DNA of 64,000 nucleotides, taken from Nageia nagi. Lineage: Eukaryota > Plantae > Pinophyta. Location: assembly GCA_050084985.1 (NCBI GenBank), contig JBITNC010000001.1, positions 164,548,001-164,612,000 on the forward strand, read 5' to 3'. The notes below the pieces were generated by a model, which was not told the origin of the DNA, searched no databases, and saw nothing but the letters and a program-made list of their open reading frames with translations. Of the stretch, positions 4,117-61,729 are shown one piece after another (within the stretch, counting starts at the first letter, position 1; the number at the start of each line of letters is the position of its first letter). The translations under genes were made by a program, and so were the position numbers.

Positions 4117-5969
4117 GTCCTGCTTTATTATAAGTTATAACTATCTCCATTTAGATGTTGCAATTTCTGGATTTCTAATGTGGCAGTTGATTGACATCAA
4201 ATTGCAGTCAACAATGAATGATTGTGAATTCATAAAGCTGTTGGTCATAGGCTACCTTGTTAAATATAGGGTCCAATGCTGCAGTCTCCAATAGAGACAC
4301 TTGGACCTTTTAACATTGTCAATTCTGCACCTTATCCCATCAACATGTTGGATACATGGCATTTGATTTGATCCTTGATTCAGTAGAATGATGGTCCTCA
4401 TTGTATTGGTTGTTGGTAACTTGGTATATGAGACAATCATAATCATTATGATCTATGTTTTTTATCCTCAGTTGGCACTGCAGAGGAAACGTTCGAGGGG
4501 TTACTAGGGTTCCCGAAGTTTCATGGAAGCTTATCAGGCAACCACTCCTTTCATTCCTCCCCTTACGACGAGGACACTCGTCCATTATGATTGCCCTTCA
4601 GGACGAGTGCTGGGTAATTAGGTCGTTAGCCCATATCCGAGGATCTCACCCGGTGAAAAGCCTTTAGGAGCACAACCATGTTCATCGCACATATAGGCGC
4701 ATTGGGATTGTGTCTTATGGGGACATATGCCACATCGGAGTGGCTATGTTGGTATGTTTTTCTTTCCTTCCAAAACATCCTTAAAACTCGAAGGAAACAT
4801 TGTTACTTGTTTCCGCTTGAAAGAACTGTGTACCCCAAGCACTCACATTGAATATGGACCCATGCACAATGGTCAGAGATGCATACTGTTCAACCGTATG
4901 CAATCGAGACTCAACGAATGACTCTTTTTATGAGTTATAAGCTAAAAAGCAAGGAAAGATCACAAATGTGAATGAAAATGAAGAAAGATGACAAATGTGA
5001 GGATAAATGCATAGGAATGAGAAAATAAGCACATGAAGCTTTCACCAATGATGAGTGTCTCGACAGGTCATCCCTGGACTCCTTAAGAAATCTGTATTCA
5101 CGTATGAAGCCTAGCAGCAAATAGCAAAGCTCAAGTTGCTACTAGACGAGAGTTGGAAGCTGTTGGATCTATGTATGATGGAAGACTCTATGGAAATGAA
5201 GATGAAGGGAAATGACCACATGTGAATACATATTCTAACTGAATGACATAGAGATAAGCTTTTTGCCTCAAAATACATACACTTATGTGCAAACCATGCA
5301 ATGAATAATTTAAACCACTTCACAAAATATTCAACTTTTTCCTCTTAAAACTCTTAGTTTTCAAAGAGAATGCACTTAAGCAGCAAAAACTATTCAAACT
5401 AGCAAGAAATTCTTATAAGATAATATTCATGATCCCACTAATGAAAGATTCACAACAATCTTCAAAGCACTATTCCAAAAAGAAATCCACTTAGCAAAAT
5501 ATTTTCAACAGCATAGCATGAGCATTCCTTTCTTTCAATAGCAAAAGTCCCTTTCTAAATGATCGAAATGGGATATATGTAGATCACAAAAGTGGTTGCA
5601 ATAAATGCAGTGTTGCCCTAAAGGCATAAAATCGGATATGGTATGCTCATATGCAACAAACATATCTATGGAAGTGGCATTTAAAATAGACAAAATATAA
5701 ATGCCACAACCACAAAACATCTAATCTATCTCTAACAAATGCATAATAAAATCAGTTATGCAATGAAGTTTGACATTTGAACCAACGGGAGCAAAACCTC
5801 ATCCTTGCACCGGTCATATCAATAAATGAAATCTCACAAATTTGATTCGGCGGAAGCAAAAACTTATCCTTGGACGAGTCAAATCAAGTAAATGTAATTG
5901 AGAACCATAACAATATGCACTTAAAAACTGAAAAGACTGTTGCAGATAGAATCTGCAAGCAAATAAAAT

Positions 5970-8459
5970 CTAAGGCAAATTTGATTCAGCACCTGCGGAG
6001 TTCCACTCTTTGTCGGTGAGATCGTATGATTCCATGGTTTCTTCCAAGAAAGCCAAGGTCTTCCGTACTCCCCTAGAGAGCATGCCTACGATGCTACCAT
6101 TTTGTCTGTAAAACCCTTCGATTTGTTGGGATGTAGCTTGCATCTGAAATCTCTAGATGACCATCTGCCTCTCATGATGAATGGGCTTGCTTGCTTTTAG
6201 AAGATTGAGATCCTTAACCTCAAGATGTTCCTGAATCAGATTTTGTGCCTTTGTCGAGATTGATACATGTACTGGGACATCTGTTCTTCCACGTCCTTTT
6301 TCAGGGGCACCTTGGCCTTAAGCACTGCTTGGCGTTTGTCCAAGGTGTGCTTCAGCCAGTCGTGTTGGTACATAAACTCATGGCAGTAGACCAACTTTTC
6401 AGGCCTATTAACAAATATCCTTTGTACATTGGTAACAATGGGGAGATGACCATCTAACTGTTCGAGGAGGGAGGAGATTTGAGTTTTCAACTCTCTTAGC
6501 TCAACTCCTTCCTTGATAAGGCCATAAATTTGAGAAGCAAGCTTCTTAATGGTCTCCATCTCGTTCTTCAGGGAATTTTTCATTAACTCCCAACCTACAT
6601 GAAATGACGCGTGTCTTTTAATTTCAACAGGGATCATACTCACAGCCTGAAATTCTTTTATCATCTTTTTGTAGGCGGTGAGCTCCTTTTTCAACCTTCT
6701 TACCTCCTGTTTGGCTTCGTAGTCCTCTTGCTGCATTATTGTTGCATTCTGTGTAACTATATGCTTTCTTGCTGATAGCCCTAGCTTAGCGGGCATCTTG
6801 AAAGTGTCAATTAGACAATCTTTGGGTCCCTTAGGGTGCTTCTCGTTAGAGTAGTAATGGTTGATAGAGATCTCCTTCCTATTTGTGGAAACATAGGTAT
6901 CCACTCTTATCACTTTGTCACCATCGGAGAGCTCTTCTTCTTCATCTTCGGACCTCAAATCAAGATCAATATCCTCATCATGAGCTGTGCCCATGTTCAA
7001 AGCTCTTAGGCAGGCGTCCAAGTCAAGCTCGGGGTGTTCAGTGGCTGGTTTAGGAGGGAGCTTTTGTACCAACATTATGCATTTGCTCAACTTCTTGCTG
7101 ACTTCTCTTGTAGGAGTAGTTTGTATGATTGTAATTTGTTTGCCTTGGTGCTCGTCCTGCTTCCTCTTCATCTTTTGTTCTTTTGTCTCACCTTGATCTT
7201 CTTTGTCTCCACCACCTACTCCTAATGATAGAACTTTTTTGTGGGGTTGAGGAGATCTCTCGTGGCTAGTTCTCTTAGATGAGGTCTTATGGGAAGATGG
7301 GGGTGACTTCTTTCGGTGGTCTGCAGGAGGAATCCTAGATATGCCCACCTCTTTGGCGCACTTTACTTCAACAATTTGGACATCTTCATCAAATTTTTCT
7401 ACATCAACAAATAAATCATCATTTGGGACAATATCATACTCTGTATCATTAGGTGCAGAAGCAGCTATGGCTACATTCTATTTTTGAATGAGGTGCGACT
7501 CATCATCATGGGGGTTAGACTCAACATCATCATCATAACTCTCCTCTCCATCATCATTTTCCTCGTCATGGCTCTCTTCATCATGGGAGCTTTCTTCATG
7601 ACGAGATCCTGACTCTTCAAGATCTTCATCTAAGGAAGAAGAGGAGGAACTAGAACTAGGTTGTAGTGGGGGAACCTTCTCTCTGCATCTTTGAAGGTGT
7701 GAGGATTTGTGTGGAGTGGTTCTTAATGGGAGCCTTCTTCATCACGGGAGCCTAACTCTTCAAGATCATCTTCTTCATCTAAGGAAGAAGAGGAGGAACT
7801 ACAACTAGGTTATAGTGGGGGAACCTTCTCTCTGCATCCTTGAAGGCGTGAGGATCTATGTGGACATAAGGGGAATCATCGACACAACTACTCTTGGGGT
7901 AGACAACCACTTGTACTAGAATGCTCAAAGGGACATTCACATAGCCAACATCCCTAAGATCAACCACCTACTGACTTATCTTGACTACATTAGCCTTTGC
8001 CTTGCGTTTGTTGGAACCCATTGAAGCATGTTGGCCAATGGTTCCTTGTCTTTTGCCGAAGGGAAGCAAGGGAGACTTCTTAGATGGAAGAGTTGGATTG
8101 CTGGTAGGAGGGGACATTCTGATCCTAAGTGATACCTCTTTAGGTCTCTCTTTCACATTTCTGGTCCCTTGATGTGCAGGCTGAGTTGTTTTGCTTCCAG
8201 TCTTGAGAGGAACCTTGTTTTTGCTCAAAAGAGCATCAATTTTCTTCTCATCCCTCAAGTTTCTGTAGTTCTCTACATTTCCCAAAGATTTGTGTTTGAA
8301 TGCTGTGGGTTCAGGGACCTCTAGTTTTTCTCTCTCTTGAAATTCAATCTGACTGTCTTTGAGGAGCCTGTCCATCTACTCTTCTGTTACATGTCTTTCA
8401 AACAGTTGTTTCTAAAGCTTCTTAGACTTAGATGAGGTAGACCTTGTCCTAGAACTCAT
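5970..8459 (-). pseudogene. LTR-borne accessory ORF of E1 (~830 codons, disrupted; largest open piece 6236-7348, 370 aa)
   Basis: ATG at 8459 (MSSRTRSTSSKSKK). Segments: basic 7968-8375, Ser/Asp/Glu-rich 7350-7960, coiled-coil-like 6236-7348 (EAKQEVRRLKKELTAYKK), and a C-terminal piece to TAG at 5970. No gag, RT, RNase H or integrase motifs seen. Confidence 0.6.
7610..7864. repeat. ~143-bp internal duplication in the E1 ORF
   Basis: ctcttcaagatc...aaggaagaagaggaggaacta...gtgggggaaccttctctctgcatc occurs at ~7613 and ~7756. Confidence 0.85.
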
Positions 8460-8917
8460 CTTTGAATTAATGTATATTCTGAAAGTATGACATATGGACA
8501 AGAAAAAGGTCTGAATTCTGGCAAAAATGACTAAGAAAAGATAAGATGATGCTAGGTGCACTATTTTGGATGTGTCTTGAGGCAATGGGGATTACCCAGA
8601 CGTACAGGCTATAGCAAGTGAAATGTTTTGCAAAAATGGACTAAAGACCCCTTTTTATAGAGGCTGCATGGAGTGTGAATGCTTGGTGCACTGCATAGGT
8701 GCCACCTGTCTGCTTGGTATTTCACTCCTGCCTCCTTGATACTTAGTCAAATTTAGGTTAGTTTTTTTGGATTGTACTGATTGGGAAAGGTGCTTTTTCA
8801 CTGTCTAGAAATCATGTGCTTGGATACCTACTAGAGGAATACATCACTTAGTCAATTATACCCTTGCTTGGACAAGAGAAATTTCACTTTGAATGGCAAG
8901 ATCATCACTCCACATTA

Positions 8918-10390
8918 GGGCGCACCAATTTAGATGAGTCCCTTTTCACTACACAAAAACTTTGCACTTCAAATTTTACCAATTGGGGTAGGTCATGCAA
9001 AAAGAATGAAGTAATTTTCAATAAATGCCTTTTTTTATCACGCTTACTCTCTTCTTAAAAAATGGGCTCAAAATGATGTCAAATGTCTTCAAAAACCTTT
9101 ATTCCTTCTGGGTGCACCATTTATGGGTAGTCCTTTTGCAATGTTTGGAAATGGTGCAACTTGGAAGTCTTAGACAAAATGAAGTGAAGTAATAAAATGC
9201 AAGGGGTGATTTTCTATTTATAGATTTGGACCCTGCCACATGTCACCTTTTGGTTGGCCAAAAATAAGGTCCAATACATGTGCTAAAATATGGGGGGCGC
9301 ACCTTTTAGGATGAGTGCCTTTTCACTTCTCAAAATCCATGCACGTAAGCTTTTTAGTGTCTCAAGACTTAGCCAAATTTCCTTTTAAAATGGATCCTTT
9401 GATCTTGGTCGCTCCATTTTTAATGAGTGCTTTTGCACTTCCCCAAATCCTTGCGCTTGGGGTCAAAACATCACTTACAAAATTACAACATGCATCATGC
9501 TTCCAAAATCTAGGCGCACTAAAAAAGATGAGTTCTTTTCCACTCCTTGGAAAACATGAGCCTGGTCCAAGGTGCAAGATTTATACTTAGACCAAAAAAC
9601 ACTTGGTCCTATATCTGCACGTTATATAGGCTCGCACACCAAAATGGATGGGTGCTTTTTCACTCCTTGAAAAGCATGCGCACAACTTTCATGGCGCCTT
9701 AAATGATGCAAAATGAGTGAATTTTAGAAAAAATAACTTAAAAAATGTCTTTCAGGATGAGGTGCATCAATTTCAAGTAATGCCTCTCTCTAATGCATGT
9801 AAAATCGAACACAAAATAGAGCAATTTGGCCAAAATGCATACAAAATGAAGTTCATCCCCTTTTTATAGCTTGCGCTCCCACATGGACAAGTGTCACATG
9901 TTAATAGGTGCAAATGAAGGCCCAATGCATGATAATACACCTGTCTAGCTCATAGTGGACGTTCCAGAATTTTGACACTTAGTCAATTTTTATGCCCTTG
10001 AAGGGTGGACGCATCATTTTGGGAGAGTGCTTTTGCATTCACCAAAATCCATGTGCTCAAGCCTTTCTTCCACAAAAGCCACAAAAATGCTAAGTGTTGG
10101 GAATGCTCCATTCCCTTGGGTGCACCTTTTCAAGATGGTGCTTTTTCACTATACCAAATCCATGCACCCAAGTCCAAAGCTTGCAAAAATCCTTCAAAAA
10201 TGACCAGAATGATCTCAGAATGATATGCAAAGAGGAGAATGCCATGTTTTCGACGATGGGGAGCAAACTAGATATGAAAAATGCAGATTTAAATGCAAAA
10301 ATGCAGGAGTTAACCATGATGAGTGCCATGTAAGGCTGTGTGCACCATTTTTGGTGAGTGCAAAAGTGCTCACTCAAAAACATGCGCCTA
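8918..10390. repeat. Interspersed repeat array in the U3 of E1 (GCGCACCAwTTT..GATGrGTGCTTTTyCACT), about 9-10 copies
   Basis: Copies near 8918, 9111, 9297, 9408, 9513, 9633, 10008, 10118 and 10339, with variable spacers. Confidence 0.7.
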
Positions 10391-10501
10391 GGAGAAAAAG
10401 ATGGTTTTACATTTGTTTTCATCAGAATATGCAGATTTGTTGTATGACGGTCCTTGAAAATGCAAAATTTTTGGGGGGTGTTGTGTAGGCCAAACAGGTC
10501 C

Positions 10502-11103
10502 TATGAAATTACTAATAACTATGCACAAAGGTGAATTTTTTTGATGGATTGCCTTGCTACCTAAACTATTCTTTCACAAAACAGAAATGAAAGAACATAC
10601 AATGCAAACAAAGCAGCCTTCATGAGAAAAATTACACAACACAGAAATGGGACACAATTCAAAAAATATGTTCCTTTTATACAGTTCTCAAAACCCATAT
10701 TACAATGCCCAAGAATTGACCTTTAACTTGTCAACTCTTTGCTGCCAATTTTGCATTCATAATATTTAAAATGAAAAAGTACACTATGCAGGACGGACTT
10801 ATTAATACTTGGGTGACTCTTGGGCTGCTTGACCCTCTGCTTTCCATTTTCTTCTAATTGTTCCATGCTGCAAGTAACTGTTGGTCTTCCTTGTGGCTTT
10901 TGGCCTTCCCATGTGCATATTTGCCTCCTGAATGTCTTTAGGCCTTCTGCTTGATGATTGTGTGGCTCTCTAATGATGTTTGTTCTTCCAAGTGACTATT
11001 GGCTTTCTGGTGCCCATGTGGCCCTTTGTATTTCTAGTGATGTTGACCTGCCCAAATGACTGTTCATCCTCTCTGGTCATCAATTTTCTATTAGAGTCTC
11101 ACA
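10502..11103 (-). mobile_element. Possible small LTR remnant next to E1
   Basis: The minus strand starts TGTGAGAC at 11103, has a purine-rich U3-like segment, a TATAAAAGG at ~10673-10681 and a T-rich downstream segment. No TSD found. Confidence 0.3.
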
Positions 11104-11972
11104 AAGCGATGGGATTGATAGGGGTGTAGACCCACAGGCCATGCTTTGCTATGGGCTTGGGGATCTACCAGCCATTGGCTTTGCATTCAAATTTATCCAC
11201 ATGCTGGTCCTAGGCTTTGGCGAAGCTTCAAGTTAGTCAATCCTTGATTTTTATCCCCCTTTGTTGCATTATAGAGCTGGTCCATTCTCATAATCTGAAG
11301 ATTATGAGACTGCAAATTGGAAACTATTTGGAGTACAGAAGTTGCATGTTGAAGCTATAATGCATTTTGGTGAGCTTAATGAGTTGCCCTTCTAACTTGT
11401 TGATCTATGCAAATTCACTTAGTCAACAGTATGCCTCACTACTATTTGAGGTGTTACCTCTCAACTTACTTCATAACGATCTAACAAAAGCTTGGTTCTA
11501 AGGGTTGATTTCCTTTTGTAAACTATTTAAGACCTTCCAATGATGAGTGTGTGGTACTGATTTATTTTCTTAATATTGTTTCTTATACATATCAACATAT
11601 GCCAAGATACTATTAGGCCTAAGGGTCATGATGCTTGGCAATGCTGCCTTCTACAACACTAATCAAGCCTTGAGAAAGCCACGGATCTATAGTGAATGGG
11701 GCGATCCAAAGTTCCAAAACAAGAGGAGAGTCAGCTGTTCTAAAGATTTGATGATCTAATGTAGGACCAAGGCATATTTTGCTTTTTGTTCCCTCTTCCC
11801 TTCAAAAAGATCTGGTGATGTGATATGGCAGTGTTTTATGATTGCTACCACTGAAATATACACTCAGTCAACATTACCATCATGTGCAAAGCCTCCAGTT
11901 TCTTAATTCAAGGTTAAATATTAAGGCACGTAGTCACACCCATATAAACCATATTTGAACTCGGTGCCCCAT

Positions 11973-12390
11973 GAACGTGGATACATCTCACAATATTAAA
12001 ATTATTGCTTTCCGTTATTGTGTATACTTTGAATACAGATTCCTGTTTATAAATCTCTTGTTGAAACTAATGAAAACACCTGTGCATTTGAGCTATCAAG
12101 TTTCAGCAGATCCTATTTTGTGGCAACTCAAATTACTTATGCTTTTGATTGTATAACCCTTACAAATCAGATTCTGGAATGTAGGACACATCACCAAATA
12201 TTGAAATTATAGCTTGCAGTTACCTACCTGGGCCTTTATTACCTCATAGGTACTTTGAACATGATTGACACAATTTAGCATGTATTCCTGTTGATAAATC
12301 CCTTGCTAGAGACTTTCATATCTAGAACCTCTGTATTTGAGCTATCAAATTTCAGGAGATCCTGTTTTTTAGTTACTCAATTACTTATTT
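11973..12390 (+). repeat. Old diverged tandem duplication (~200-245-bp period)
   Basis: ttcctgtt-ataaatc...atttgagctatcaa-tttcag-agatcct occurs at ~12040-12140 and ~12285-12390. Confidence 0.65.
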
Positions 12391-13860
12391 CTTCATTGTG
12401 CAATAGATTACAATATGGTTGGGAAACGTATGCCATTGCCTCATTATAAGGCTTTCCCTTGGTTAGGAATGTCCTGGTTATGAATATGATGGTCTATAAG
12501 GCATGTCATGTTGGTAGTGATGGGTCCAATTTAGCAATCCAATATATCTAGGGTTGCTTTCAGCTTCAGGAAGTTTATGATTGAAGTTATAGGCTACTAT
12601 ATTGTCTGTAGTTCTCATCATTATGGTTTCTTACAGTGTACCATAGGAAATCTCTTTGGGTGAAACATTAAAATGTTGAAGTTTGTTTTTGCATTCTTTC
12701 ACTATTTTTCAGTAGTCAAGTGCAGTTTTATGATAATTATTTGTCGAAAGCTTGAACCATGATTTTGATCGATAAGTTTTTATGCCTATATCTATTCCCC
12801 CATCTTCTTGTGGCCATTCACATGCGTTTGGTCTTGACTTTTGACAAAAACGAAGAGCAGCAATTCTCCCTATCAACTAGAACACTGTTACCACCTATAA
12901 GCCTTGTGAGTTTAGAATATAGTGAGATAGATCATAATGGTTCATGGAAAAAACACCTTTTCAACTTGTTTCTCTTGAAAATATTTGTTTCATACAATGT
13001 TTGTGAGCTTTCTTCATGCTGAAAGAGGAAAATATGATTTTCTTACTGTCACTGCCCATATATCAACATGTCACTTTCAAAGAAACAATAGTTTTATATC
13101 TGGTATGAGATATCAATTGCAAATAGTTTCCACATGAATAAACTTTCATTTGGCTGCCTGCGTTTTGAATGTTTTCAAGTTTCTCTATTGTGCTGTCTTG
13201 CTATTCTTTCATGGTTTCATGTGTTCTCTAATTGTTACCATGATTGCTCCTAAAATCCGAACCAACGACATCTGCGCTGTTAGCTTCAAGGTTGATAGCA
13301 GCCCACACAACCTGGATTTGCACCAGCATGATCAAAAAGCGAAACTTTTTAAAACTGTATATATTTAAATTAATTTTAAAAAAATTAATAATAAAAAAAT
13401 ATACTTTGGAGGAGGGGTGCACCTGCAATTTTTTTTTCAAGGTGAATAAAATTTGCGGAATAAAATCTGTTTCTTTTGAAATTTGTTGATTTTCTAACCT
13501 CTTGGTTGAAATCGGCACATTTTGTAACATAGAATATAATAAATGGTTGTTTCTTTTGAAGAATACATAATGATGTTTAGAGACATTGAACCGCACAACA
13601 CTTTATTATTCCTTAATAGTTAATGCCTAGACCATGATCTAAAGGACAGAAATAACCTAACTACATATATTATGTGTTGTATCTTGGATCAGAACATCTT
13701 CTCCATTTTATAAAAGCCTTGTCCCAAAAGCAAGGAAGGAGTCAACTCTTTACCTTCTTTTTTAATAAAATTATTTTCTATGCAAAACTTTGCTTTTTCT
13801 GGATTGTGGATGCTTTGGTGGCCAACACAATTTTCCTTGTTGCACACATCCTCCAAATGC

Positions 13861-13940
13861 CATCAGTGCCAAATTTCTTTTGTTGCAAGCCAACCGTCCA
13901 CATCAGTGCCAAATTTCTTTTGTTGCAAGCCAATCATCCA
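13861..13940 (+). repeat. 40-bp tandem duplication
   Basis: catcagtgccaaatttcttttgttgcaagccaa occurs at 13861 and 13901. Confidence 0.9.
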
Positions 13941-14031
13941 CATAAATTTTTGTTTGGTGACAAAATAAAACCACTTTGCTATCGTCCATGCACCATTTTG
14001 GAGCAGGTAGTAGGTGACACTTTTGAGCTTT

Positions 14032-14853
14032 TGTAAGATCCCCAAATTAAAATATACAAAAACCCTAGCTGAAATATTATGAATTTATCCAATAAAAATT
14101 CTGATCTATGCAAACAATAATCAGATCTACAAATTATTCAGATAAATAACACCCGAAACCGCAAAGTAGCGGATCTAGCCTCACAAATATTATTAAAATA
14201 TTCTGCAAGTACAAATAGATAGATCAGTTCATATCCATCACAAATTAACCTCTAAGATGCATAAGAAGAGAGCCCTAGGCTGGATGTTCCTCTAGGAGGC
14301 AAATCACAGACAAAGAATGATAGATTCTGATGTAAATGCACCAAACCCTTTGATGGGTATCCTGATCCAATGCTTGATAGCTGAATACTGTGAAAATATG
14401 GATGTCTTCTTCAAACCCTACAGCTGGAATTCTAGTTCTGCACAAACGTAGACTCTGAATAAACCTACTCCAAATAGAGAGAAAGGGTTTTTGTTCTAAT
14501 TCCCTGAGAATTCAGAGGTTTTCGTCCCTGAACTTAATTCCTTCATATGTTTTCGTCTGCAGAAGAAACTAGGATGGGATGCTAAGGCAACAACTCACTC
14601 GAAGAGAAAATGAGAGAAATAACAATCAACAACGCCCAAAATGGACACTCCACTTTTTAAATAGCCATGAGCTTCTAATTCTTCGTTGAGGTTTATGGAA
14701 TCATTAAAAATGATTAAATTCACCTTATTACTCCTAATTAACTTTTTTAAAACTTAAAAATACTCCTAATATTTAAGTCCCATTTCCACATGTGCTCAAT
14801 TGGATTCTATAAAATAAAAGTGAAAATTAGTGTTCAAAAATGGGGACATTATA
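14032..14853 (-). repeat. 3' LTR (822 bp)
   Basis: Colinear, high similarity to 24692-25505 along its whole length. Confidence 0.93.
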
Positions 14854-14889
14854 GTCCTCCACTCGCAAAATTGCTTGTCATCAAGCAAT
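14854..14889 (-). promoter_or_regulatory. Polypurine tract and conserved Gypsy 3' end
   Basis: Minus strand reads ATTGCTTGATGACAAGCAATTTTGCGAGTGGAGGAC immediately before the LTR. This matches the TTGAGGACAAG...GGGAGGAC motif typical of plant Gypsy 3' ends. Confidence 0.7.
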
Positions 14890-15170
14890 GTGAGCGTAAC
14901 CTCAACATTTCCTAACTGAACCAAACCATAACCATAATTAGCTGGTGATTCTAGGGTACCAAATCAACTATATGTTAGCATCAAAACACTCTTCTATGCA
15001 CACGGAAATATCTTCTACAAATTTAGCAGGTTTAGAACAATAATTTGGAATCTCAAACTCAACATTTATGCCTAGTGGAGGACATTTATCCTAGCAAGAA
15101 CAAACAAATTCAACGACCCGTTCAAAACATTTCGAAGATTTTTGCCTTTCAGTTTCTAACGCTTTTATAG

Positions 15171-16211: not shown

Positions 16212-17073
16212 CTTTATAGTTTGAATCTCATTTTGAACAATAACTCTTTCAAACAAATTTTGTTTTCCTTCTAACACCACCACTTTGTTGCCAATAACAT
16301 TCATGTTATCACGCTTATCCACATCACAAAAGAGTTCATGAATATGAATTGATTGATCATTATGTTTGCTTTCTTCAAATACTGATATAGGTGAATGGAA
16401 ATCTACAAGAAGAATACATCTCCCAAGATTTTAGCAATAGTATCAACTATCATAATCTTCCCTACTTCATTGAGATGTATGACTATCTCTTTATCATCCT
16501 CTAGATTTGAGTATTTTCCAAGTGGTAAAAATCCCAAGTATGGATCACAATATAAGTAGGTACTGGAAGGACATCTAGGTAATACATCTATCACACTAAC
16601 AACAACCAATTTACTATCAATTAAGTATTGCTGGTGAAATGAACTAAACCACACAAAGAAACAATATTGTCATGGGTTCTCAGTTTAAGCTCATCAATTC
16701 CTTGGTTCACCTTAATAGCTACATTAAGATCCTCCTCTGGTTCAACTACCTTTTAATTTTATTTTGCTATATAGGAAATTGTTGTGCGTCAACAACACGC
16801 CCCAAAATTTGCATTATAGGAACCAGAATCTCGCCTAGTCTTATACTCATTCGAAAGCCCACAGAGAACCAAGTGTTGCACATCCCTCCCAATCACAGTC
16901 ATAATGAGCCTGAATTGAAAAATCATTGAAAAATTGACTAAGTATGGAATATAGGAGAGTCTAGGGAACCATGTGAGATAAGAGACTAAGTCCTAGAGCT
17001 CGAAAATTTGGCTAAGTGTCAAAGTTTAGTCTTCCTTTCAGGTGTACCCAAAACATAGGGCAAAAAGAAGGCT

Positions 17074-17984
17074 GAGCGCATGACTTAAAAAGGAAAAATT
17101 ATGATTTTTTGAAACATTTTTGTGGCCAAGAGGAGTCCCAGATGGAACGAAGGGGTTCAAATTGCAAAATTGTGACTTCCAAGAATTTTCAAGCAAGAAA
17201 GTGGTTAAGGCATGGAGCGCACCCGAAAAAACACCAAAATATGACTTTTAAAATGTGCGCCTAGATGAAGAACACCCAGGGAATGAGTGCATGTTTCAAA
17301 AAGACATAATTATGACTTTTTAAAACATGTGCCTGGCTTGAGAGACCTTCTGGGTGAGTTTGGCATGAAAATTTGACTAAGGCATGACTCCTAAGACATT
17401 TAAAATTGGCACAAGATTGCACAAACAGGCTAGTGAATGTTTCAAGAAGACAATATTATGACTTTCTAAAATGTGTGCCTAGCTCAGAAGGATTTCCAGT
17501 TCAAGCGCATGATGAAAAAAGATAAAATCATGACTTTTTGAAACGTGCGTCCAAGGTGGAAATGCTCCCAGTTGAAGCACATGACTTCAAAAGACAAAAT
17601 ATGACTTTTTAAAACATGTGCTCAAGATAGGATAGCTCCAGGATCGATCCAAGGTGGCAAAATGACCAAGTATGGGCTTCCGAAGCATCCAAATCAACTC
17701 AAAATTGCAAAAGGATGAGAGCGCATGGTAACAAAAGATAGAAACATGACTTCTGGAGATGTGCGCTAAAGTTGGGAGACCTTCTGGGGAGTTTGAAGTG
17801 GAAATTTGGCCAAGTCCTGGCCCCAAAAGCACCAAGATCAGATGAGAATCACACAAAGAGACCAATGCTTGAGAAAAAAAGAGAAAAATAAGACTTTCTC
17901 AGGCATGCACTCAAACTAGGAGGTCACCCAATTTAGGTGCACCATTTCAAAAGAAAAGTTTTTAACCTTTTTGGTGATGTGCCC
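17074..17984. repeat. Array of ~9 imperfect palindromes in E2 (GAGCGCATG..AAAAGACAwAATwATGACTTTT..CATGyGC)
   Basis: Copies near 17074, 17215, 17285, 17433, 17504, 17575, 17719, 17862 and 17936. Confidence 0.8.
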
Positions 17985-18271
17985 TGTCCTAGATTCCCAG
18001 GTTTCGAAGATGAAGGGTCCCAAATTGTCCCAACAATGCTTACAGGTTGATACTTGCCCTTGTGCATCCCTCCTCAAGCTAGCCAACATCGATTCAAGTG
18101 TCAAACCTATCTCGAAAGTTGCATCCATCAATAAAGGCACACATCCTTAGGAAGGTAGCCGATTTGCCCCAAGGAAAACCCTAGAAAATGCCTGTTAAAG
18201 GGGAGCTCATTTTCATTTTCATATTATAATTTTGTTCTCTCTTCAAATTTGTTAGGGCATCAAAGATCAAA

Positions 18272-18799
18272 ATGGTAGGGACAAACTTCGAGATGCAAGG
18301 GAAGAGGATCGAGCCAGAGAAGGTGGTGACTTTCTATGGTACCTCATCAAAGAAGAAGGCCAATATTGACCTAGCAACTTTGATTAGAGCGTTACATGAA
18401 GATCCTAGTCAGAGGGTGAAAGATTAGTCTACAACAATTCATTATGTAAGCAAATGTATCATCAAGGTCAATAACACGTCATTAGTTACCAAGGTATTTC
18501 TAAACAAGGTTCTTGAGAAGTCTCAAGACTTGGAAACCCATACCCAAAAGATGGAGATAGGCGACATCAGGACCACAAGAGCAAAATGAATCAAAGAACT
18601 TAGAAGGATTGCTAAAGAATTGGAAGAAAGCTAGAAGAAGCTGAATCTTGAAGAAGAGAACACGCTTCCAAAGCCATACCAGCCTCAAGATAGGGTGACC
18701 ATTCAAGAGCAAGAAGGAACCATCTATTGGAAAACACTAGATGAGACCAGTTTCAGCCAAAGTTGTGTAGTAGATCAGCCAGAACAAGGACATCCTTGA
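18272..18799 (+). pseudogene. LTR-borne accessory ORF of E2 (~175 codons, three in-frame stops)
   Basis: One frame from ATG 18272: MVGTNFEMQGKRIEPEKVVTFYGTSSKKKANIDLATLIRALHEDPSQRVKD*...KELRRIAKELEES*KKLNLEEE. The stops are TAG/TGA, as expected from transition decay. An acceptor-like ttgttAG lies at 18255. Confidence 0.55.
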
Positions 18800-20149
18800 T
18801 GTCCCTGATATAGGAATGATGAAGATTTCAAGTCATGTGTTGCAGGAGTGAAAGAGATGGATGAATCCATGAGCACCAACTCGATGGAGGTGTTTCACTT
18901 GAGATGCAACATTTTCAATTTCATTTTATTTTGCATAATTTCATTTCAATTTGGATCTCAAACTATTATTCATTTTGATTGAGCCATGTGATGTTTGAGG
19001 ATTTGCTCCCACAAGTGATGGACTTGATCTTGTATTGACACTTGTCATTTCATAGTTAGAATCAGGGTTTATTTTAGTTTATTTTATTTGAATTTGAATT
19101 AGGGTTAGGGCTTCACTCAAAAAACTATAAACAGCCCTAAAGGGCTCATTTGCAAAGGAGGATGACCATTTTACTCAAGAGGAGCTATTTTGAACTTGTT
19201 AATATTTTTAACACTCTCTTGTATGTGAATGTGGAGCATAATTTAAACAAATCAAGACTTGTTCATTTCATGGGGTTGTGAACTTGAGTATTGTTACTTG
19301 GTATTTGCTTGTAGTTGCCATATGACTTGTGGGCATTTCTTGTAAGTGTAGGCTTGTAAGAAAGTTGAATGAACTTCTTAAGAAGTTGTATGATTGTTAT
19401 TTGATGAACATTGTTCACTCTTTTGCATATAGATGGATGTATGTTAGTGAAGCCCTTTCCATATCGTCTGGTTTGATATGTTGCTCATATTATTGCACTT
19501 GGTAACATTGCTTCAGGCTCCATCTTGCTTTCAACTTGGACTTAGTCATTTGTGGCAAGGACTGGATAAATGACTAGGCACATCATAATAAACCCGGAAA
19601 GGAAGTGAATTGACCCCTAATCCATCGGTGGACTTGTCACTGAATGTACTTACCTCGTATGCCATCATCCCGATTTTACACTTTCTTTTACCTTTACTTT
19701 GTTATTTTTTTTTACCATCAAAAATCTATCATTTCAATTAGTGCAAGACAACTTCAGTCCCCATAGTAAAACGTGGTAACAGTTGCTGTCTCTCCTCCCC
19801 ATTTGGGTCATTCCAAGTTCATATCACTACCATAGACAACACTTTGAGATATAGAAACTTTGGGGTAACCAGTCCTTGCAAGCGGAGGTTAGTAATAGAG
19901 CCTCAACCACATGGTTGGATGCCTTTCCATTTATCACCTAAGGTGGTATTTGTAGGAGGAAGGAAAAATATCCCAACAGAAGCAAATAGAATATTTTGAT
20001 AACAAATTATCCTTAGAAACAACATCCATCCATAAGTGATCACCAAATCCTTCCCTCATTTCATTGCTAAGGAAAAACTGATCAGATACAAATGTCCCAC
20101 AATCACCAGAAAGGTCATGAACAATCATTATCGGTGAAGATAGATGAGA

Positions 20150-21225
20150 TAAAGCAGCTAGTGTTAACTTTTCCAAATTGTCATAAATTCTGCATGTAGC
20201 AAGCAAAGTCTGTCTCTTCCAGGTGACCAAACCTTCTAAGGATATGAACTGTACATGCATAATTTTCTTCTCTGTCACACCATAAGGGTGGTTCATAGTA
20301 TTAAAGCAGTCACAACCTTCATCTACTAGGCCTAAGTGAGTTCAAGCATATAGGATACCAACAAAAGTGATATGATATGATTCTATCCCAGCTTTTTGCA
20401 TTTTTTTAAAGAGTTCCAATACAAATGTGCCTTTTGCTGCCTGAGTATGCATTCCATGCAAGACATCAGTTCCTTTTTTATGTTCACTGCTTACAAAATA
20501 GCCAAAACGAATATGTACATCTCTGGCCTGAAGAGATTTGAGAACAACCTCACGACTGGGAAGTGGAACACCTGAGCAAACAGTTGATTCTACATTAACA
20601 ACTTGCACCTGGCCTTTATCTGCCAGTCTCTCTGCAATTGTTGCTAACTCAACCGTACAGTAACCAAATCCCACCACCATGACAGAAATAGGAGGCTCGT
20701 CCTTCCCAATTTTTTTTGTTCCAAAGCACTTAGTTGTTAATCCATTTTAAGAGCATCTTCCAAAGTGGAAAATGGTAGAGTGAATTCTAAAATACCAGGA
20801 ACAACACCCATTTTGTCTTTGAACCAAGTGCCAAAACCAACTACTCATTCTCAATCTGCATTCAACTTTGAAGATGAACATGTCCACCAATGTCTGAAGT
20901 TGGTAAATCACTGCTCCTTGTATTATCACTAGAACATAGGGTCTTCACTTTATCTCTGCAAAATGTCACAACAATGTTTGCTAATAGTTCTAAAAAGCGA
21001 GGTGCTATCTCCCATGCATTAATTTCTCCATAAAGGATTTCATAAAACATAGGTTTAAAAACAAACCAGTCTGACTGATCAATAAGTAGAACTTGCATGC
21101 CCTGTTCTATTTTGAAGAATGAAGCAAATGTGAACTCATCCATTTTCACATCTGTCATCTGCATTTGTTAAAAGAGAGTTAAAATTTTCTCATGACTCCT
21201 ACTTTGAGAATATCCTGCCTTGTTC
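20150..21225 (-). pseudogene. Captured PLS-class PPR gene fragments inside the Gypsy internal region
   Basis: AGYSQ...LF*QMQMTDVKMDEFTFAS (~21115-21220) and LELFKKMQKAGIESYHITFVGILYA*THLGLVDEGCDCFNTM..YGV...LLATCRIYDNLE (20170-20420) match PLS P/L/S repeats and the E motif. Confidence 0.75.
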
Positions 21226-21615
21226 ACAGAAAAAAATGAATGATCTCACCTAAATTTGCTTTGCAGCATGTTTACCAATTCTTCCTCTTCACATATCAGT
21301 AATGCTGCAGCTAATTCCTCCACACATGACAACTCACAAGGTCAACCATAGTTCACTGGATTTGCTGCAACAAGCCATGGTAATAGGCTAGGCACAACAA
21401 AGCGTCACAAAAGGAGCATCGGTTAAGCGTGCCCATGAGCAATCCACTACAGCCAATTCTCTTTTCTGAAAGGCTGCTATTTCTTCGAAACACACTTATT
21501 ACCCATGGGACTGAGAACAATAGCCCCAAAACTCTGCTTTGCATCCTGCCAAATGATCTGTAAACCTTACTTCAGGATTTATTTTGGATCTTCACACTTT
21601 ATTCATTTTAGTGCT

Positions 21616-23011
21616 TGTGAAAATAAAAATGCACACCAAATCAAAAACACACAAAATTATGTACACACATAGTTACCCTGGTTCGACTGATGTGATCTAC
21701 ATCCAACAAATTGCAATCCATTATTGTAGAGTTCATTTTATAATGTTACTTGTATGATCCTTCTTGCTTCACTTTTTTGTTTGTTGAAGTCGAATCACAT
21801 GATCATTGTAGGCTCTCCATTGAATCTCTTTCTTGAAGACGACTCTTTTTTCAACGAAAGTCTTTGAGCATAGTTCCACAGCTCTTGTCCCGAGATGACA
21901 TCTTTTGAACTACTCTTTGTCTTTTTCTTTTCATCATGGCGATTATGTCATTCACTTCTTTCTCCATGGCAATAATCTTATCCATGTTCTTTTTCTTCTT
22001 CTATGTAAGCTTGAAATGCACCTCCAGTATTACTCTCATGGTTTTGTTATTTTCCATGGAGTTTACAATAAAATGGAGTCTTCTACATTCTTTTCAAACC
22101 TACACTAAATCCCTCTCTGGAAGAAAACCCTCTAAAAGGAATTAACTAATTTCCAATCTCTATGCATCCTTTTATAAGAATTAAGGGATTACAATTTTTA
22201 ATTTTAGAAGATTTGGTTACAAAGGTGATAAACATGATATTTGTCATTTTTCCTCATTTAGAAGATTTTAATACAACAATAAAATATGTCACATCTTGGT
22301 ATTTTTCTCCAATTGATTATTTTCTCTCTTCTTTCCAACAAAAAGCTCCTTTTTTAACATTACATAGCATTGTTTTGGCCTCATACGGTTATATTCTGCT
22401 ATTTTTTTGGATTTTGCAAAAATGTCAAAACTGCTTCTGGTGCCATTTTGTCATGACCACAACTTCATGACCATAATTCCAAATGTCATGAAATTTCATC
22501 TAGGTGTTCTTGGATATATGTAGCTTGACTGGTCCAAATTTCATGCTTTAACTCCTTATTGGTAGCTCTCAGTATCGTCATCAAGTTGGTCTCCAACGCA
22601 GATTTGCACCTGGCAACTGTCAAAATTTGATTGAAGTCATGAATGCAGAATGAGAATTTACTGTTTTGTGAGCATCATAACTTTCAAGTCTTTAATCCAA
22701 ATGCCTTCAAATTTTAACCACATGTTCATCATAATACGAGGTACCTATGATTCAAATTTCAAGCTATGAATCGACCCGAGCTGCTCCTGATGAGTCCATC
22801 AATAGAGCCTTCCATGCATGTTTTGCATTTTTTTTATTTAACTCCAACTTTTGAAAAGCCATAACTTACAAACCATAGCTCCGTTTTATTCGCCTTTTGA
22901 AGAATTGGAATCGTGGGAGAAACCTTTTTTAATATGGAAGAGAATAATCAACAAAATTATAAATTTGAAAAATCACCTTTTTTTAAGACTTTGAAATCCA
23001 TTTGAATTCAA
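21616..23011 (-). mobile_element. Solo LTR (~1.4 kb, Copia-like) nested in the Gypsy element
   Basis: Flanks gtgct/gtgca (4/5). The minus strand has the GGATGTAG...CGAACCAGG U5 motif typical of Copia LTRs (~21675-21705) and a TATAAAAGG at ~22168-22176. Confidence 0.6.
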
Positions 23012-23101
23012 GTGCAAGTAAAATGGACAATAAACATTGAACCATTCCCCTCCATTACAATATGGTGATCACTATAAAGCATAGTAAGGCAAATAGATCC
23101 A

Positions 23102-24250
23102 TCAGGGAGTAAGGAAAACAACCAAATGGTATAATGAAGATTTCATTGTTTCCTTCCATGGTGCTGCACCAGGCTCAAACTCATTCAAATCAACTATATC
23201 ATCAAAATCAGGTGGTCTATCTAAATCAAAAAGTGGATTGTCAAAAGACAAATTAGCATTCATCTCAAACAAGGGGTTATCAATGAGACGACATGAATCA
23301 TAGTAGTCCAAGGGAAATTTATCATATTCAATTGCTAATACGTCACTCTTCAAATCATCTGTACTGAAATCATCATGAATATTCTTTTCTCTAGGTTTGG
23401 TTTGGGAATCTAGACCAAACTCTTCCAACTCAGGCAATGTTTGCACCTCATTATCCTTATGAATGAAAGAGCTATGCAAAGTTAATTGGCTGCTGTCACA
23501 AAAATCAGAATTAAATCCATACCTTTCAGCAGTGACTTCATGCCTATCCCAAGGCTCAAGTGTCTCTCTTCCAAAATCTTCATTGCTATGCCCCATATCA
23601 AAATCAGCTCCATGTAACAACAGTTCTGATCTATCTTTATCACCACAATGATCAAAATCAGCAACATTACATTCTTCAATTTTGTTGACTGAAGTTAGGG
23701 CACAAGATAAATCAATTTTATCTTCTAAATCTACAACAATGTCAAGTTTATTGGAAAAATCACTTTGTAACATGCTTTTGATTCCTTCCACTTCTATGCA
23801 TCCTCCATAAGATCAATTTCTTCATTAAATATAGGATTTCCTACTCCTCTATTCCCACAAGCTTCATAAAAAATACCATCATTATGCATCAAATAATTGC
23901 TATGAGGAAATGAACATGATTTCTCATACTTGTTATCAAAACCCTTACTATTTTCCATGGATGAAGACATATCCATTGTGGTGGATTCATTTTTGCATAT
24001 CTCTTGAGACAAGGCATCTTCTTCCAAATCTGAAATTGATGAGATTTTCAATTCAGGATTTGATTTCTATTCAGTAAGATTAGGTTGCGATAGCCCTAGA
24101 TCTGATAATATATGAAAGATTGCTCTAGTTGTAGATTTGATTGAACTCTCAATCGGATCTGGTTGTTCTATCAAATCATTCATTCTTTGGAGCTCTATGG
24201 TCAAACCTTCCAATGCTTTTATTCTTTTCTCTTTTTTGAGATCCATGATT
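23102..24250 (-). pseudogene. Acidic low-complexity ORF remnants just downstream of the PBS
   Basis: ORFs 23102-23791 and 23794-24051 are D/E-rich with repeated DNPLF motifs. They sit where gag would be, but show no gag motif. Confidence 0.4.
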
Positions 24251-24678
24251 CACAAACTGGCAAGATTCAGATCACACTCCAAAACTCCTAAAAAACCCTA
24301 GATATATCAAGCACATTGAATCCAAACTCCAAATGCTCTAAATAAATTAGCAAACCTTAGATCTATGAGATCTCACACCATAAATTTTATAAAATTATTT
24401 TGAAGGTGGCCATACATAGATCAACCCTCAAAATATATAAATCAGCCTTCAAATATACCAAATAAAATTCCCAAGGTTGATCTACTCATAGGCTGGCTTC
24501 ACAAAACCTTTAGATCTATTGACAAAACCTATAGATTTAATAGATCTAGTCACAATATTTCTAGATCCAATATATTTATTCACAATACTTTTAGATCTGA
24601 TATATCTCTTCATAAACTTTAGATATGGTTTCAATTTCTGCAATTTTGATCTTCATCCAATAGGTTGGCAAGATCACT

Positions 24679-24690
24679 ACTTTGATACCA
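24679..24690 (-). promoter_or_regulatory. Primer binding site (tRNA-iMet type)
   Basis: Minus strand reads TGGTATCAAAG one base after the LTR's CA; the canonical sequence is TGGTATCAGAGC. Confidence 0.85.
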
Positions 24691-24691
24691 C

Positions 24692-25505
24692 TGTAAGATC
24701 TCCAAATTAAAATATATAAAACCCTAGTTGAAATATTATGAATCTATCTAATAAAAATTCTGATCTATGCAAACAATAATCAGATCTGCAAATTATTCAG
24801 ATAAATAACACCTGAAACCCCAAAGTAGCGGATCTAGCCACATAAATATTATTAAAATATTTTGCAAGTACAAATAGATAGATCTACTCAAACCCATCAG
24901 AAATCAATCTCTAAAATGTATAAGAACAAAGCCCAAGGTTGGACGTTCCTATGGGAGGTAGATCACACAAACAGTGATAAATTCTGATATAAATGCACCA
25001 AAACCTTTTATGGGTATCCCGATCTAGTGCTTGATAGCTGAATACTATGAAACTATGGATGTCTTTTCAAACCCTACAACTGAAATTCTAGTTCTACACA
25101 AATGTAGACTTTGAATAAATCTATCCCAAATAGAAAGGGTTTTCGTCCTAACTCCATGAAAATTTAGAGGTTTTTGTTGTTGAACTCAATTCCTCCATAG
25201 GTTTTCATGTGCAAAAGAAACTAGAATGGCATGCTAAGGCAACAAGTCACTCCACGAGAAAATGAGAGAAATAACAATTAACAACCCCCAAAATGGGCAC
25301 TCCACTTTTTAAATAGCCATGAGCTTCTAATTCTTCGTTGAGGTTTATGGAATCATTAAAAATGATTAAATTCACCTTATTAGTCCCAATTAAGTTTTTT
25401 AAAACATAAAAATACTCCTAATACTTAAGTTCCATTTCCATATGTGCTCAATTGGATTTTATAAAATAAAAGTGAAAATAAGCGTCCAAAAATGGAGACA
25501 TTACA
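24692..25505 (-). repeat. 5' LTR (814 bp)
   Basis: TG...CA termini; pairs with 14032-14853. Confidence 0.93.
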
Positions 25506-26293
25506 ACTTCATATTCCATTCTATCTTGTAGTCCTTTCTTCAATATAGAAATGATTTCACTTTATCCACTTGTGTTGTATACTTAAAACTTAAATTGTAA
25601 TATAATAATTTGAAACTTCGTAACTAAACATTGGTTATACTACATGATGGGGGACAATTGAATAATGGAGGTGAAAACCAAGCACAACAGAAACCATTTA
25701 ACACCTCAATATGGAGTTTCTCAAAAATTTATAGGTTGTTAATAAACTAAAGCAGTTGACTAGATAAGAGTAATGGAAAAAGTTTCCTTATTTAGTTAAC
25801 AAGCTTGAAGCAACATATTGCTTTCAAAGGAGGGGTGACTAGTTTGGGTGTCAAATTGATTTGCAAAGCTATGTGAAAGATTTATTAGGTTTATATGAGC
25901 TCTCTTCCCTTTAGCTACCCTCAGCCCAATTGACGACTGACCTCCTTCGCTCTCCCTGTTCTTCGAGGTTACCTCCTCCACACATGTTCCTCACCTTGGT
26001 GTCCAAATAATCTTTTGTGACAAACTTGAAAATCATACGAAAAAGACCTTGGTGGAGGGGATCCACATCCCGTCCCTTCTGAACATCCTCTACTGCTTTA
26101 CATTGAATAATTGCATCTATTTTAAAAAATCTATAGTTTTTTTTAGAAAATCTATTTTGGGCATATCATTTGATCATTGGATTCCATGATTTGCATTTTC
26201 TGTGTTATGCTTTGCTAAGTAGTGCACGACTACTTGTGTATATATCTATTTTGTGCATAACTTACGTTCGTTGCATTTTGTGAAACTACATTC

Positions 26294-29070
26294 TGTTGGG
26301 TAGTTTTTCTTTTCTACCTTGCAAATAGACAAATTAGTTGCAAGGCCAACAAAGTTGCCAACACCTAGGTGGAAGGGCGTTACCCCTACCCATTATGAGG
26401 ATTGGTTACCTCAAAGGTCTCGTGAAATGGTTGTGCAAGAATGAGGCTCAGGAGACTAGTTAGTATGTTTGAAGCTGCTACTAACTCAAATAAAATTTGT
26501 TAACCAAGGGCTCGGATTGTCTTCATATTTGGACAAGGGTTGTTTCTCAAAACAAAACAAGTAAAAAAGCCACAAAACATAAGTGTAAAATAAAAGAAAA
26601 ATAGGAGGGAAGATTGAAAATAGCTAGGGGAACACGAGTTCAACTATTTACATCAAGCTCCACTGATGAGTACAATGCATGAATGCTAAGTTCTTTCGGG
26701 TTTGTTGTGAGTTCCATGCATCCACACATCTCTCATTCTAGCCAAACAACACAAAGGGTCAAGAAGAAGGATATATCCACTTACACTAAGCAACAACATG
26801 AGTGAACTAGTGAAGGGAGCATGTGTCTAATGGAGCACAAGGATGACACTTCCAATATGTGGATCAAGTTCTCACGCTAAACGTCACAAGGGAACCCACT
26901 TTTAGAGTTATACAAGTCTAGTTGCTTACTATGAACAATCATTAACTATGTATCACATTCAACACGTTGAAAAGATATTCAACCACTCTTTCACCCACCC
27001 CTCAAGAGGTTTGTGAAATATTCCAAGCATCTAGGCAACACACATCAATGACAACATTACATGCCCAAGCTCATAGTAACATATAAATGGAGTCGTGCAA
27101 TTTCATTCAAAAGATCATGCCACATTCACAATAGACAAGTATTGGATAGACAAAATTAGTCTACTCATCTAGTTACAAATGTTCATGTCCAAGTTTCAAA
27201 ATTCCATCCCCTTTAAAATGAGCATTTAAGGGGTATAAATAGTTTTTCATGGCAACCTTAAGTGTTGCCTTAACCCTTGTGCGGAGTTGGAGAAAAATAA
27301 AAGTGGTCCAATGAAAATTCGCCACATGGTGTTACAAGATTTATTCCAGCATTTGTGGGAGCAAATCCTCATTTGTCACAAGGTTGAACCAAATTTAAAA
27401 GGTCTTTGAAATCCAAATTTAAAATAAACTGCAATAATAAAATAAAATAAAATTGTTGTAACTGCAACACCACACCTCTATGCTCTTCAGGTGCACTTGG
27501 ACTTGTGCATCTTCCTTGCCTTTGCAACACTTGACTTGACTTGTTCACCTTTTGGCACTTGCGAGGGCAATCTAGTAGCCTGCATACATCACTAGGATGA
27601 TCTTGGATCTTGTCTTTGAAATATGGCCATCTTGGGCGCATGCTTCTTTCACTCAAAATCTTCGTGACTTTCCCTTCTCTTAGGCCTAGGCTCCTCTAGA
27701 TTTCACCTCAAATGCTTCCTGAAGCCTCTCCAAACTTAGAGCATGCCAAAAAATGTCTAGATTTTGTGTTTTTTTATGGTGTGAAAGACTTGCATTAATT
27801 GCTTGAACTTGGAGCATGCTTCAAAAACACAAGATTTTGTCTTTTTTTTCGTTGTGCCCATCTTGCCAGTTGTCCCAACTCGAGCGCATGCCAGAAGAAG
27901 ACAAGATTTTGTCTTTTGGAATCATGTGCTTGCCGTCTTGGACCTGCTTGTGTTAGACGTTGGTTTCGAGGTCGTCTAGACCTCCTCCTGGGCTAGGCTT
28001 ATGCTACAAAAAGTCAAGATTTTGTCTTTTTGAAGCATGCGGTCAATTGAGAGCCACATGCCCTTCGCACACATGTCATCTTGGCTCTTCGACTTGCCCA
28101 CTTTGACCTCGCATCATTCGGATTTGTCTTTTCTAATGCTTAAGGTTGCTAGATTTCACCTTCGAACAGCTCTAGAAGTCCTTGCAAGCCAGGCGCATGG
28201 TCCATAAAGACAAGATTTTGTCTTTTGAAATCATGAGATCAACTCTCTAGACATGCCAACTTGAGCGCATGTTCCAGAAAAGACAAGATTTTATCTTTTG
28301 AAATCATGCATTGGGTTGTTCTTGCCCAGTTTGACTTGTTTCGGGTCATTAGCAAGTGGGACTTCGCCAGATTTTCACATTTTTCTGGAATTGATGTCTC
28401 CTTGGGCTAGGCACATGCCACAAAAGAGAAGATTTTGTCTTTTCAAACCATGTGCATGCCCTCTTTATCATGCCTGAGCTGAGTCTAGCTTCGAAGTTCC
28501 ATGCCTTAGTCAATTTTCAATTTGAGCCCAGTCTGGATGTCTTCCTGCTTTGAGCGCATGCTCCCAAAAGACAAGATTTTGTCTTTTTGAGGGATGCACT
28601 TAACCCTGGAGTGCTTTAACTTTGCTTTCTCATCTTCAGGTTCATCTTGAGTGGCTTCCTGGTTTGAGTGCATGCTTCCAAAAGACAAAATTTTGTTTTT
28701 TTTGAAGCATGTGCTTGGCTCGAAATGCATCATGGTTGCCTCTTTTATTCTTCGACTCGACTAAGCGGCTTGTGGACCTAGACGCATGCCCCAATGCAGT
28801 GGACCTTGGGGTGGCTTAGCTTCGCTTGACTCGGCTTGGACTTGACCTGGATTCCCCTACTTGGCTTAAACTCGACTTATGGTTTCTAGACTGTCATTTT
28901 TTTTTGAAGATTTTAAGCTTTGTTTGGACATGGCTACGATTGGGTGAATGACGATACTTTTGGCTTGGGATGATATACATAATAACCAGATAGTTGAAGT
29001 GACAAAAACATGACCTTATGTGGACCAGAGTTGTTGAGGGTCCTCAAAATCGTAGGATTTTGGGGCAACA
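26294..29070 (-). mobile_element. Giant solo LTR E3 (~2.8 kb)
   Basis: Inverted termini TGTTG...CAACA; TSD cattc (26289-26293) / ccttc (29071-29075). Blocks shared with E2: TGAGGATTTGCTCCCACAA (27353-27371), the TATA block (~27210-27250) and the 3' end gaaaaactacccaaca. Confidence 0.8.
27739..28716. repeat. Array of ~9 palindromic repeats in E3 (GCGCATG-N5-AAAAGACAAGATTTTGTCTTTT-N5-CATGyGC)
   Basis: Copies near 27739, 27812, 27882, 27997, 28192, 28263, 28410, 28552 and 28666, with non-identical spacers. Confidence 0.85.
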
Positions 29071-61656: not shown

Positions 61657-61729
61657 AAAAATATACAAGAATACATAAGGCCCTATTGCATTATTCTTGG
61701 GATGAATCATTACACATTCATTGTTGACC

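Follow-up and report, generated by a model that had tools for sequence, protein, structure and literature searches.

Can a long terminal repeat (LTR) of a plant retrotransposon carry its own regulatory gene together with the DNA sites on which the gene product acts? Plant LTRs are usually regarded as devoid of genes, and a retrotransposon is considered disarmed once it has been reduced to a solo LTR. The window analysed here, a stretch of 64,000 nucleotides from Nageia nagi, holds three related units, E1, E2 and E3, each with an array of palindromes and two of them with a gene (Table 1). In our main reading, giant Ty3/gypsy elements of plants likely left E1–E3 behind as solo LTRs, and the product of the gene in U3 would likely bind the palindromes and keep the LTR active. 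We give this reading as a whole roughly one chance in three (about 0.35).

Extent and nature of the units

The first-pass annotation of the window described three related elements sharing one order of parts, and that description stands. All three have the start motif and also the TGAGGwTTTGCTCCC block (at 5801 and 27371 on the minus strand and at 18996 on the plus strand), and the common order is array, TATA-like box P1, gene, conserved block, TATA-like box P2 and 3' end. The 3' end of E1, previously placed at 4398, had to be moved to 4747, because the likeness of three relatives (the L001, L002 and L003 copies) all ends there, the end motif at this position agrees with the ends of E2 and E3, and 4460–4748 is another repeat, which makes up most of the surplus 350 bp. 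Both E1 and E2 are present in high copy number, while the 5' flank of E1 is almost bare and near single-copy (four DNA runs, related genomes).

Table 1. Features of the three units, in coordinates of the window
Feature	Position	Strand	Remark
Separate repeat abutting E1	4460..4746 (~4460–4748)		relatives continue differently
E1	4747..10496	-	5.75-kb TG…CA unit, likely solo LTR; without target duplication
Conserved TGAGGwTTTGCTCCC block of E1	5787..5801	-	sequence match
Broken gene of E1, ~830 codons	5970..8459	-	stops and frameshifts
Conserved C-terminal region of E1 gene	6239..7051	-	predicted small beta-sheet, then long coiled coil; dN/dS ~0.1
TATA-like box with CATTT (P1) of E1, 200 bp before the ORF	8634..8660	-	pattern match; putative function
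E1 array, type B	8772..10387	-	10 imperfect palindromic 48-bp units; profile search
E2	16780..19978	+	3.2-kb TG…CA unit; nested in another retroelement
E2 array, type A	17075..17983	+	7–8 palindromic units; profile search
Short gene of E2, 175 codons	18272..18799	+	3 stops; by sequence, homologue of E1-family beta-sheet module via open L003 copy
E2 conserved block (18996–19010) and downstream TATA-like box P2 (19125–19151)	18996..19151	+	
E3	26294..29070	-	2.8-kb TG…CA unit without gene
E3 conserved block (27357–27371) and TATA-like box P2 (27216–27242)	27216..27371	-	
E3 array, type A	27738..28714	-	9 palindromic units; profile search

Relatives of the units came from one metagenome scan that returned seven loci, five of them real (L004 being the same sequence as L005) and holding nine further family members or parts. 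The other two, L006 and the near-identical L007, were dropped as bacterial false positives. Scanning viral and prokaryote contigs at the protein level gave no match, and 120 viral contigs that matched the 15-nt block were rejected as relatives, since the likeness went no further.

The units are probably LTRs with a gene in U3. The solo-LTR reading rests on (i) TG…CA ends, found in E1–E3 and the relatives, (ii) a 5-bp target duplication and (iii) the TATA-like box P2, which lies 0.85–0.95 kb before the 3' end of the unit. The duplication is perfect (5/5, GAAGG) around a complete 3,029-bp relative, L003:2003-5031. It matches at 4/5 positions in E3 (GAAGG/GAATG) and 3/5 in E2 (GAAAT/GAAGC), and the 2/5 match of E1 (GGACC/TAGCC) amounts to no target duplication; a fifth unit has a damaged end. 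Such ends and duplications are standard traits of LTRs, as are inverted termini of 5 bp and a TATA-like box at such a distance from the 3' end, and long LTRs recombine readily to solo copies.

These same traits, with inverted termini of only 5 bp, argue against the units being whole mobile, gene-bearing TG…CA cassettes that move singly by means of an integrase or DDE transposase from another element, which we regard as quite improbable. The cassette explanation has for it that all complete copies were seen unpaired, no gag-pol or recognisable primer-binding site follows any of nine 3' ends on the few, short contigs, and no obvious purine tract precedes the seven starts counted in the window and the relatives. 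In addition, the contigs that leave the 3' end of E1 have diverse flanks (agreement 0.44–0.58). A Met primer site is recognisable in two other elements of these loci, unrelated to the units. Nevertheless, the contigs are few and short, collapsed contigs would mask a shared internal region, and solo copies are readily formed from long LTRs. No transposase was found among the ORFs scanned. A degenerate tRNA-Arg primer site after the 3' end of E1 was also considered and rejected, since its bases are the other repeat continuing past the junction.

Could the gene region instead be internal sequence, or a nested insertion, caught between remnants of short LTRs? Nesting is heavy in all loci and E1 has no target duplication, both in line with this. 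Against it, we found no terminal direct repeats within any unit, the same order of parts recurs in families with proteins only 20–25% identical, and the L003 unit has a perfectly duplicated target; we therefore consider trapping very improbable.

A selected gene within the units

Sense ORFs had been annotated in E1 and E2. Genes are indeed present between array and block in both, but neither frame is open throughout: that of E1 is interrupted by several stops and frameshifts (longest open stretch, 413 codons) and that of E2 by three stops. The short remnant allowed for in E3 could not be detected by tblastn or HMM searches. The window copies E1, E2 and E3 are dead, and the relatives give a fuller picture of the gene. 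An E1-type copy in L002 has a coding span of ~1,190 codons (a nested element left out of the count), including ~1,219 bp (~400 codons, the N-terminal domain) missing from the window E1, where the gap lies near 8300. In L001, an array of the E3 type is followed by a homologue of this N-terminal domain (37–38% identical). Another L002 unit carries, before the same block and with an E3-like end, a C-terminal domain 20–25% identical to that of E1. The L003 unit holds a type-A array, both TATA-like boxes and a stop-free frame of 159 codons that is 51% identical to the E2 ORF. Finally, L002:11790-14372 keeps its array but lacks a gene. Three gene states thus occur in the family (~1,190 codons, the short beta-module only, or none), and the array is kept in all of them.

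The gene is real and evolved under strong purifying selection inside TG…CA-bounded units. A test of dN/dS against 1, as proposed in the first-pass annotation, gave values well below it: of ten comparisons of the long gene, seven had a finite value (0.07–0.18), and in the other three, in which synonymous sites were saturated, the bootstrap upper bounds were 0.12–0.20. Synonymous sites were saturated for the E2-type pair as well, with a bootstrap range of 0.09–0.25. By contrast, non-coding 3' sequence used as a control gave 0.50–1.09 and no position bias, and wrong-frame controls gave 0.83 and 2.10. Substitutions in the gene were in excess at third positions (112 vs 46/31).

We found 32 homologues of the gene, with identities down to ~23%; none of the ten looked up has a name. 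A search for homologues of 567–2000 aa with the C-terminal alignment found none, which is weak evidence. The relationship of the short E2 gene to the E1 family required the open L003 copy, because the copy in the window gives too faint a signal by itself: when the broken E2 ORF was searched directly there was no match, and its comparison with the E1 family was not significant (hhalign probability 11%; HMM E ~6–8, no better than reversed controls). Via the L003 copy, the short E2-type ORF matches the beta-sheet part of the family profile with E values of 1.3e-6 and 4.9e-6 per sequence. Judged by these profile matches, the E2 short ORF is homologous to the C-terminal part of the E1-family protein, in shortened form.

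The gene product has no sequence match in Pfam or PDB. The model of its C-terminal region (pLDDT 84, pTM 0.41) consists of a four-stranded sheet and long helices, and the predicted helices (92–138, 141–212 and 217–270) would give it the coiled coil of a PMD-coiled-coil eORF. Fold searches with this model returned generic coiled coils only (no Foldseek E below 0.001; Z up to 10.1); they were run on the whole model, so that the beta-sheet part was barely tested. Pieces of the N-terminal domain from L001 and L002 did not match PMD (PF10536), DUF1985, Transposase_28/32 or ATHILA at E values up to 10, which leaves room for remote homology, and the model of this domain reached a pLDDT of only 36, at which a fold search is uninformative. 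The domain opens with a helix, a hairpin and a helix, much as DUF1985, Athila-type domains and the plant mobile domain do, and by this likeness of motifs it may be of the plant-mobile-domain/DUF1985 kind; it is probably also common among unnamed gymnosperm proteins.

Palindromic arrays and what may act on them

Iterated profiles recovered units of ~48 bp from each array, 10 in E1, 7 in E2 (an eighth, at 17577, in a separate analysis) and 9 in E3, in keeping with the roughly nine palindromes per element first proposed. No unit was recovered across 20 shuffles per array. The dyad symmetry of the unit profiles (r 0.62, 0.70 and 0.80) was reached by none of 500 column shuffles. In a stricter count of palindromes unit by unit, E3 exceeded its shuffles (5 vs a maximum of 3), as did four related arrays, whereas E1 (3 vs 4) and E2 (2 vs 4) were no better than theirs. 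Since E1 fails this test, its units are palindromic mainly as a family, not singly.

Three lineage-specific repeat cores had been proposed, but there are only two array types, because E2 and E3 share one half-site, AAAAG(A/T)CA-N5/6-TG(A/T)CTTTT (type A), and only the core of E1 is distinct (type B; inner AGTG…GCACTC, outer GCGCAT…GTGCGC). Profile similarity was 0.77 between E2 and E3 and only 0.24–0.41 between either of them and E1; the outer arms are common to both types. The cores previously quoted for E1 and E3 are written on the plus strand, opposite to the orientation of those elements. The type-A half-site accompanies a long gene (L001), a short gene without the N-terminal domain (E2, L003) or no gene (E3, L002), and a single type-B array was available. 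As type A occurs with three gene states, no one-to-one co-evolution of protein and repeat is shown.

In 23 of 27 type-A units, which are related by duplication and not independent, both half-sites switch jointly between GAC and GTC and remain inverted copies of each other. The symmetry has therefore been preserved, as would be expected equally of a hairpin and of a site bound by a dimer. Palindromes that act or arise as RNA or single-stranded DNA hairpins during reverse transcription, kept symmetric by pairing or hairpin-templated repair with no sequence-specific protein, would account for the joint switching and perhaps also for a small inverted repeat seen near the 5' start of most copies. 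We nonetheless find hairpins improbable: at the switching position the three E2 units that were scored all carry a mismatch, E1 units are only weakly self-complementary when taken one by one, and the primary sequence of the arms is preserved across very distant families.

A TATA-CATTT pattern, derived from these same sequences, has 12 matches on the sense strand and none on the antisense strand, in 8 of 12 segments; P1 of E2 and P2 of E1 were not matched. Besides P1, E1 has two further boxes of this kind, at 9869 and 9223. In all three gene-bearing copies in which the stretch was seen and the pattern matched (E1, L001, L003), the array lies directly before P1 of the gene. This position is one of two points against a possible alternative, only slightly less probable than our main reading, in which the solo LTRs do carry a gene in U3 but the palindromes are an enhancer for a host transcription factor, and the protein is an unrelated structural or RNA-handling accessory factor, as other extra ORFs may be. 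The other is that the E1 family and the E3-type family have different inner cores; the N-terminal domains of the two are ~38% identical. On the other side, an enhancer for a host factor would agree with outer arms common to both array types, with arrays that persist without a gene, with a C-terminal region that matches generic coiled coils only and with the Retand elements, where family-specific repeats lie beside accessory ORFs to which no link is shown (PMC11963269).

A trans-acting, oligomeric DNA binder is suggested by half-sites repeated 6–10 times before a promoter, by a selected protein with a predicted coiled coil and by gene-less members that keep their arrays; the combination suggests that it acts on the LTRs of its own family. 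Under our main reading, P1 would drive the gene and P2 the genomic RNA, and P2 as the genomic-RNA promoter would place the gene in U3. The protein would bind the 48-bp palindromes as an oligomer, by which the LTR would stay active, and gene-less members such as E3 would be served in trans. It is attractive, if rather speculative, to extend this to a widespread group of plant retrotransposons whose LTRs pack a gene for a sequence-specific DNA-binding anti-silencing factor or activator with its palindromic array, so that each solo LTR that recombination leaves behind would still be a complete module of protein and sites, gene-less LTRs would be served in trans and, at the far end, units might move without an internal region. 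A selected LTR gene of ~1,190 codons, its promoter preceded by a palindrome array, would turn solo LTRs into a store of trans-acting regulators in genomes rich in repeats. It would also offer a testable target, the 48-bp palindromes of two sequence types, for those accessory ORFs of plant gypsy elements that still lack an explanation.

Comparison with known systems

Coding sequence in U3 is familiar from retroviruses: MMTV sag and HIV nef overlap it, and HTLV-1 has Tax-responsive repeats there. The units would resemble these in having a coding sequence in U3, and repeated U3 elements that answer an element-encoded activator may be a parallel to array and gene here; MMTV, HIV and HTLV-1 are vertebrate retroviruses and are compared by description only. 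Our literature search, with subscription journals mostly outside its coverage, returned no paper that describes LTRs of plants, or of gymnosperms in particular, as containing a gene.

[quoted passage not shown] Gymnosperm TatIII elements carry PMD eORFs (PMC4408406, in part), and LTRs of up to ~5 kb and repeat arrays are known in the TatIII/Ogre group (PMC6317226, in part). The gene shares with the TatIII/Ogre PMD eORFs the form of a large accessory ORF with an N-terminal domain and a predicted C-terminal coiled coil. Unlike them, it lies inside a TG…CA unit, in sense to its TATA-like boxes, it does not match PF10536, and no RT or other polyprotein sequence is linked to the units. The accessory ORFs described from Retand and Grande feature Transposase_28 and SMC-like coils (PMC11963269, PMC7264820). 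There too an accessory gene adjoins family-specific repeats and a DNA-binding regulator has been proposed, but those ORFs are antisense, between pol and the 3' LTR, in elements with LTRs of 315–1,194 bp. They are reported to be absent outside flowering plants, and PF04195 is not matched by the protein here.

A further comparison is with the anti-silencing protein VANC of the Mutator-like VANDAL transposons, whose binding sites are short motifs standing in tandem arrays (PMC5735166). In structure this protein is described as like PMD/MAIN, with a predicted coiled-coil oligomer interface (PMC13547354; bioRxiv 10.1101/2024.09.27.615353), and the structure of VANC21 is PDB 9LNK (PMC13547354). As in VANC, a transposon-encoded accessory protein adjoins short motifs clustered in non-coding DNA, and a globular part is predicted to be joined to a coiled coil. 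In contrast to VANDAL, the units are not Mutator-like (TG…CA ends, 5-bp duplication), the motifs are spaced palindromes of 48 bp and not 9-bp words in tandem arrays, and the protein has no DUF1985 match. The gene-bearing units are, in sum, a variant on the already known accessory genes of plant retrotransposons.

Non-coding and terminal parts of the units

The 3' non-coding part of E1 (4747-5549, minus strand), one of the related TG…CA units that are likely solo LTRs, differs by ~0.2-0.3 changes per site between copies, against 1 or more changes per site at the synonymous sites of the E1 gene. As fewer changes have accumulated there than at the synonymous sites, the comparison points to this non-coding part being under constraint. 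Within the first 60 bases, near the 5' start, most copies among E1, E2, E3 and their relatives carry a small inverted repeat, CCCCAAAAT…ATTTTGGGG, which is kept in its best form by the copies at the metagenome loci L001 and L002 and is degenerate in E1 and E2.

Nesting and neighbouring sequences

E2 is nested in a minus-strand retroelement flanked by 820-bp repeats (88.7% alike), with a Met-type primer site adjoining 24692. The two broken gene fragments directly beside E2 are possibly captured host sequence. Family members also lie repeatedly within or immediately adjoining each other at L001, L002 and L003, and three flanks begin with GAA.

Coordinates of the features (in the window unless a locus is named)
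Feature	Position	Strand	Context
Repeat pair	14033-14851; 24692-25503		flanks minus-strand retroelement
NOG1-matching fragment	19937-20341		beside E2
Pyr_redox-matching fragment	20345-20746		beside E2
Tandem duplication, ~145 bp	7577-7864		acidic linker of E1 gene
Nested/adjoining members	L001:2818-2849; L002:1054; L002:11790-14372; L003:1824-2003		
AT-rich repeat arrays	53087-57364; 61684-63951		other than E1-E3 arrays
Open frame, 179 codons	54165-54704	-	

Other repeats and an open frame

The AT-rich repeats are partly inverted in orientation between their two regions. The 179-codon frame had no match in a Pfam search, and tblastn revealed no relation to the E1 family; the frame may resemble a piece of the plant-mobile-domain type.
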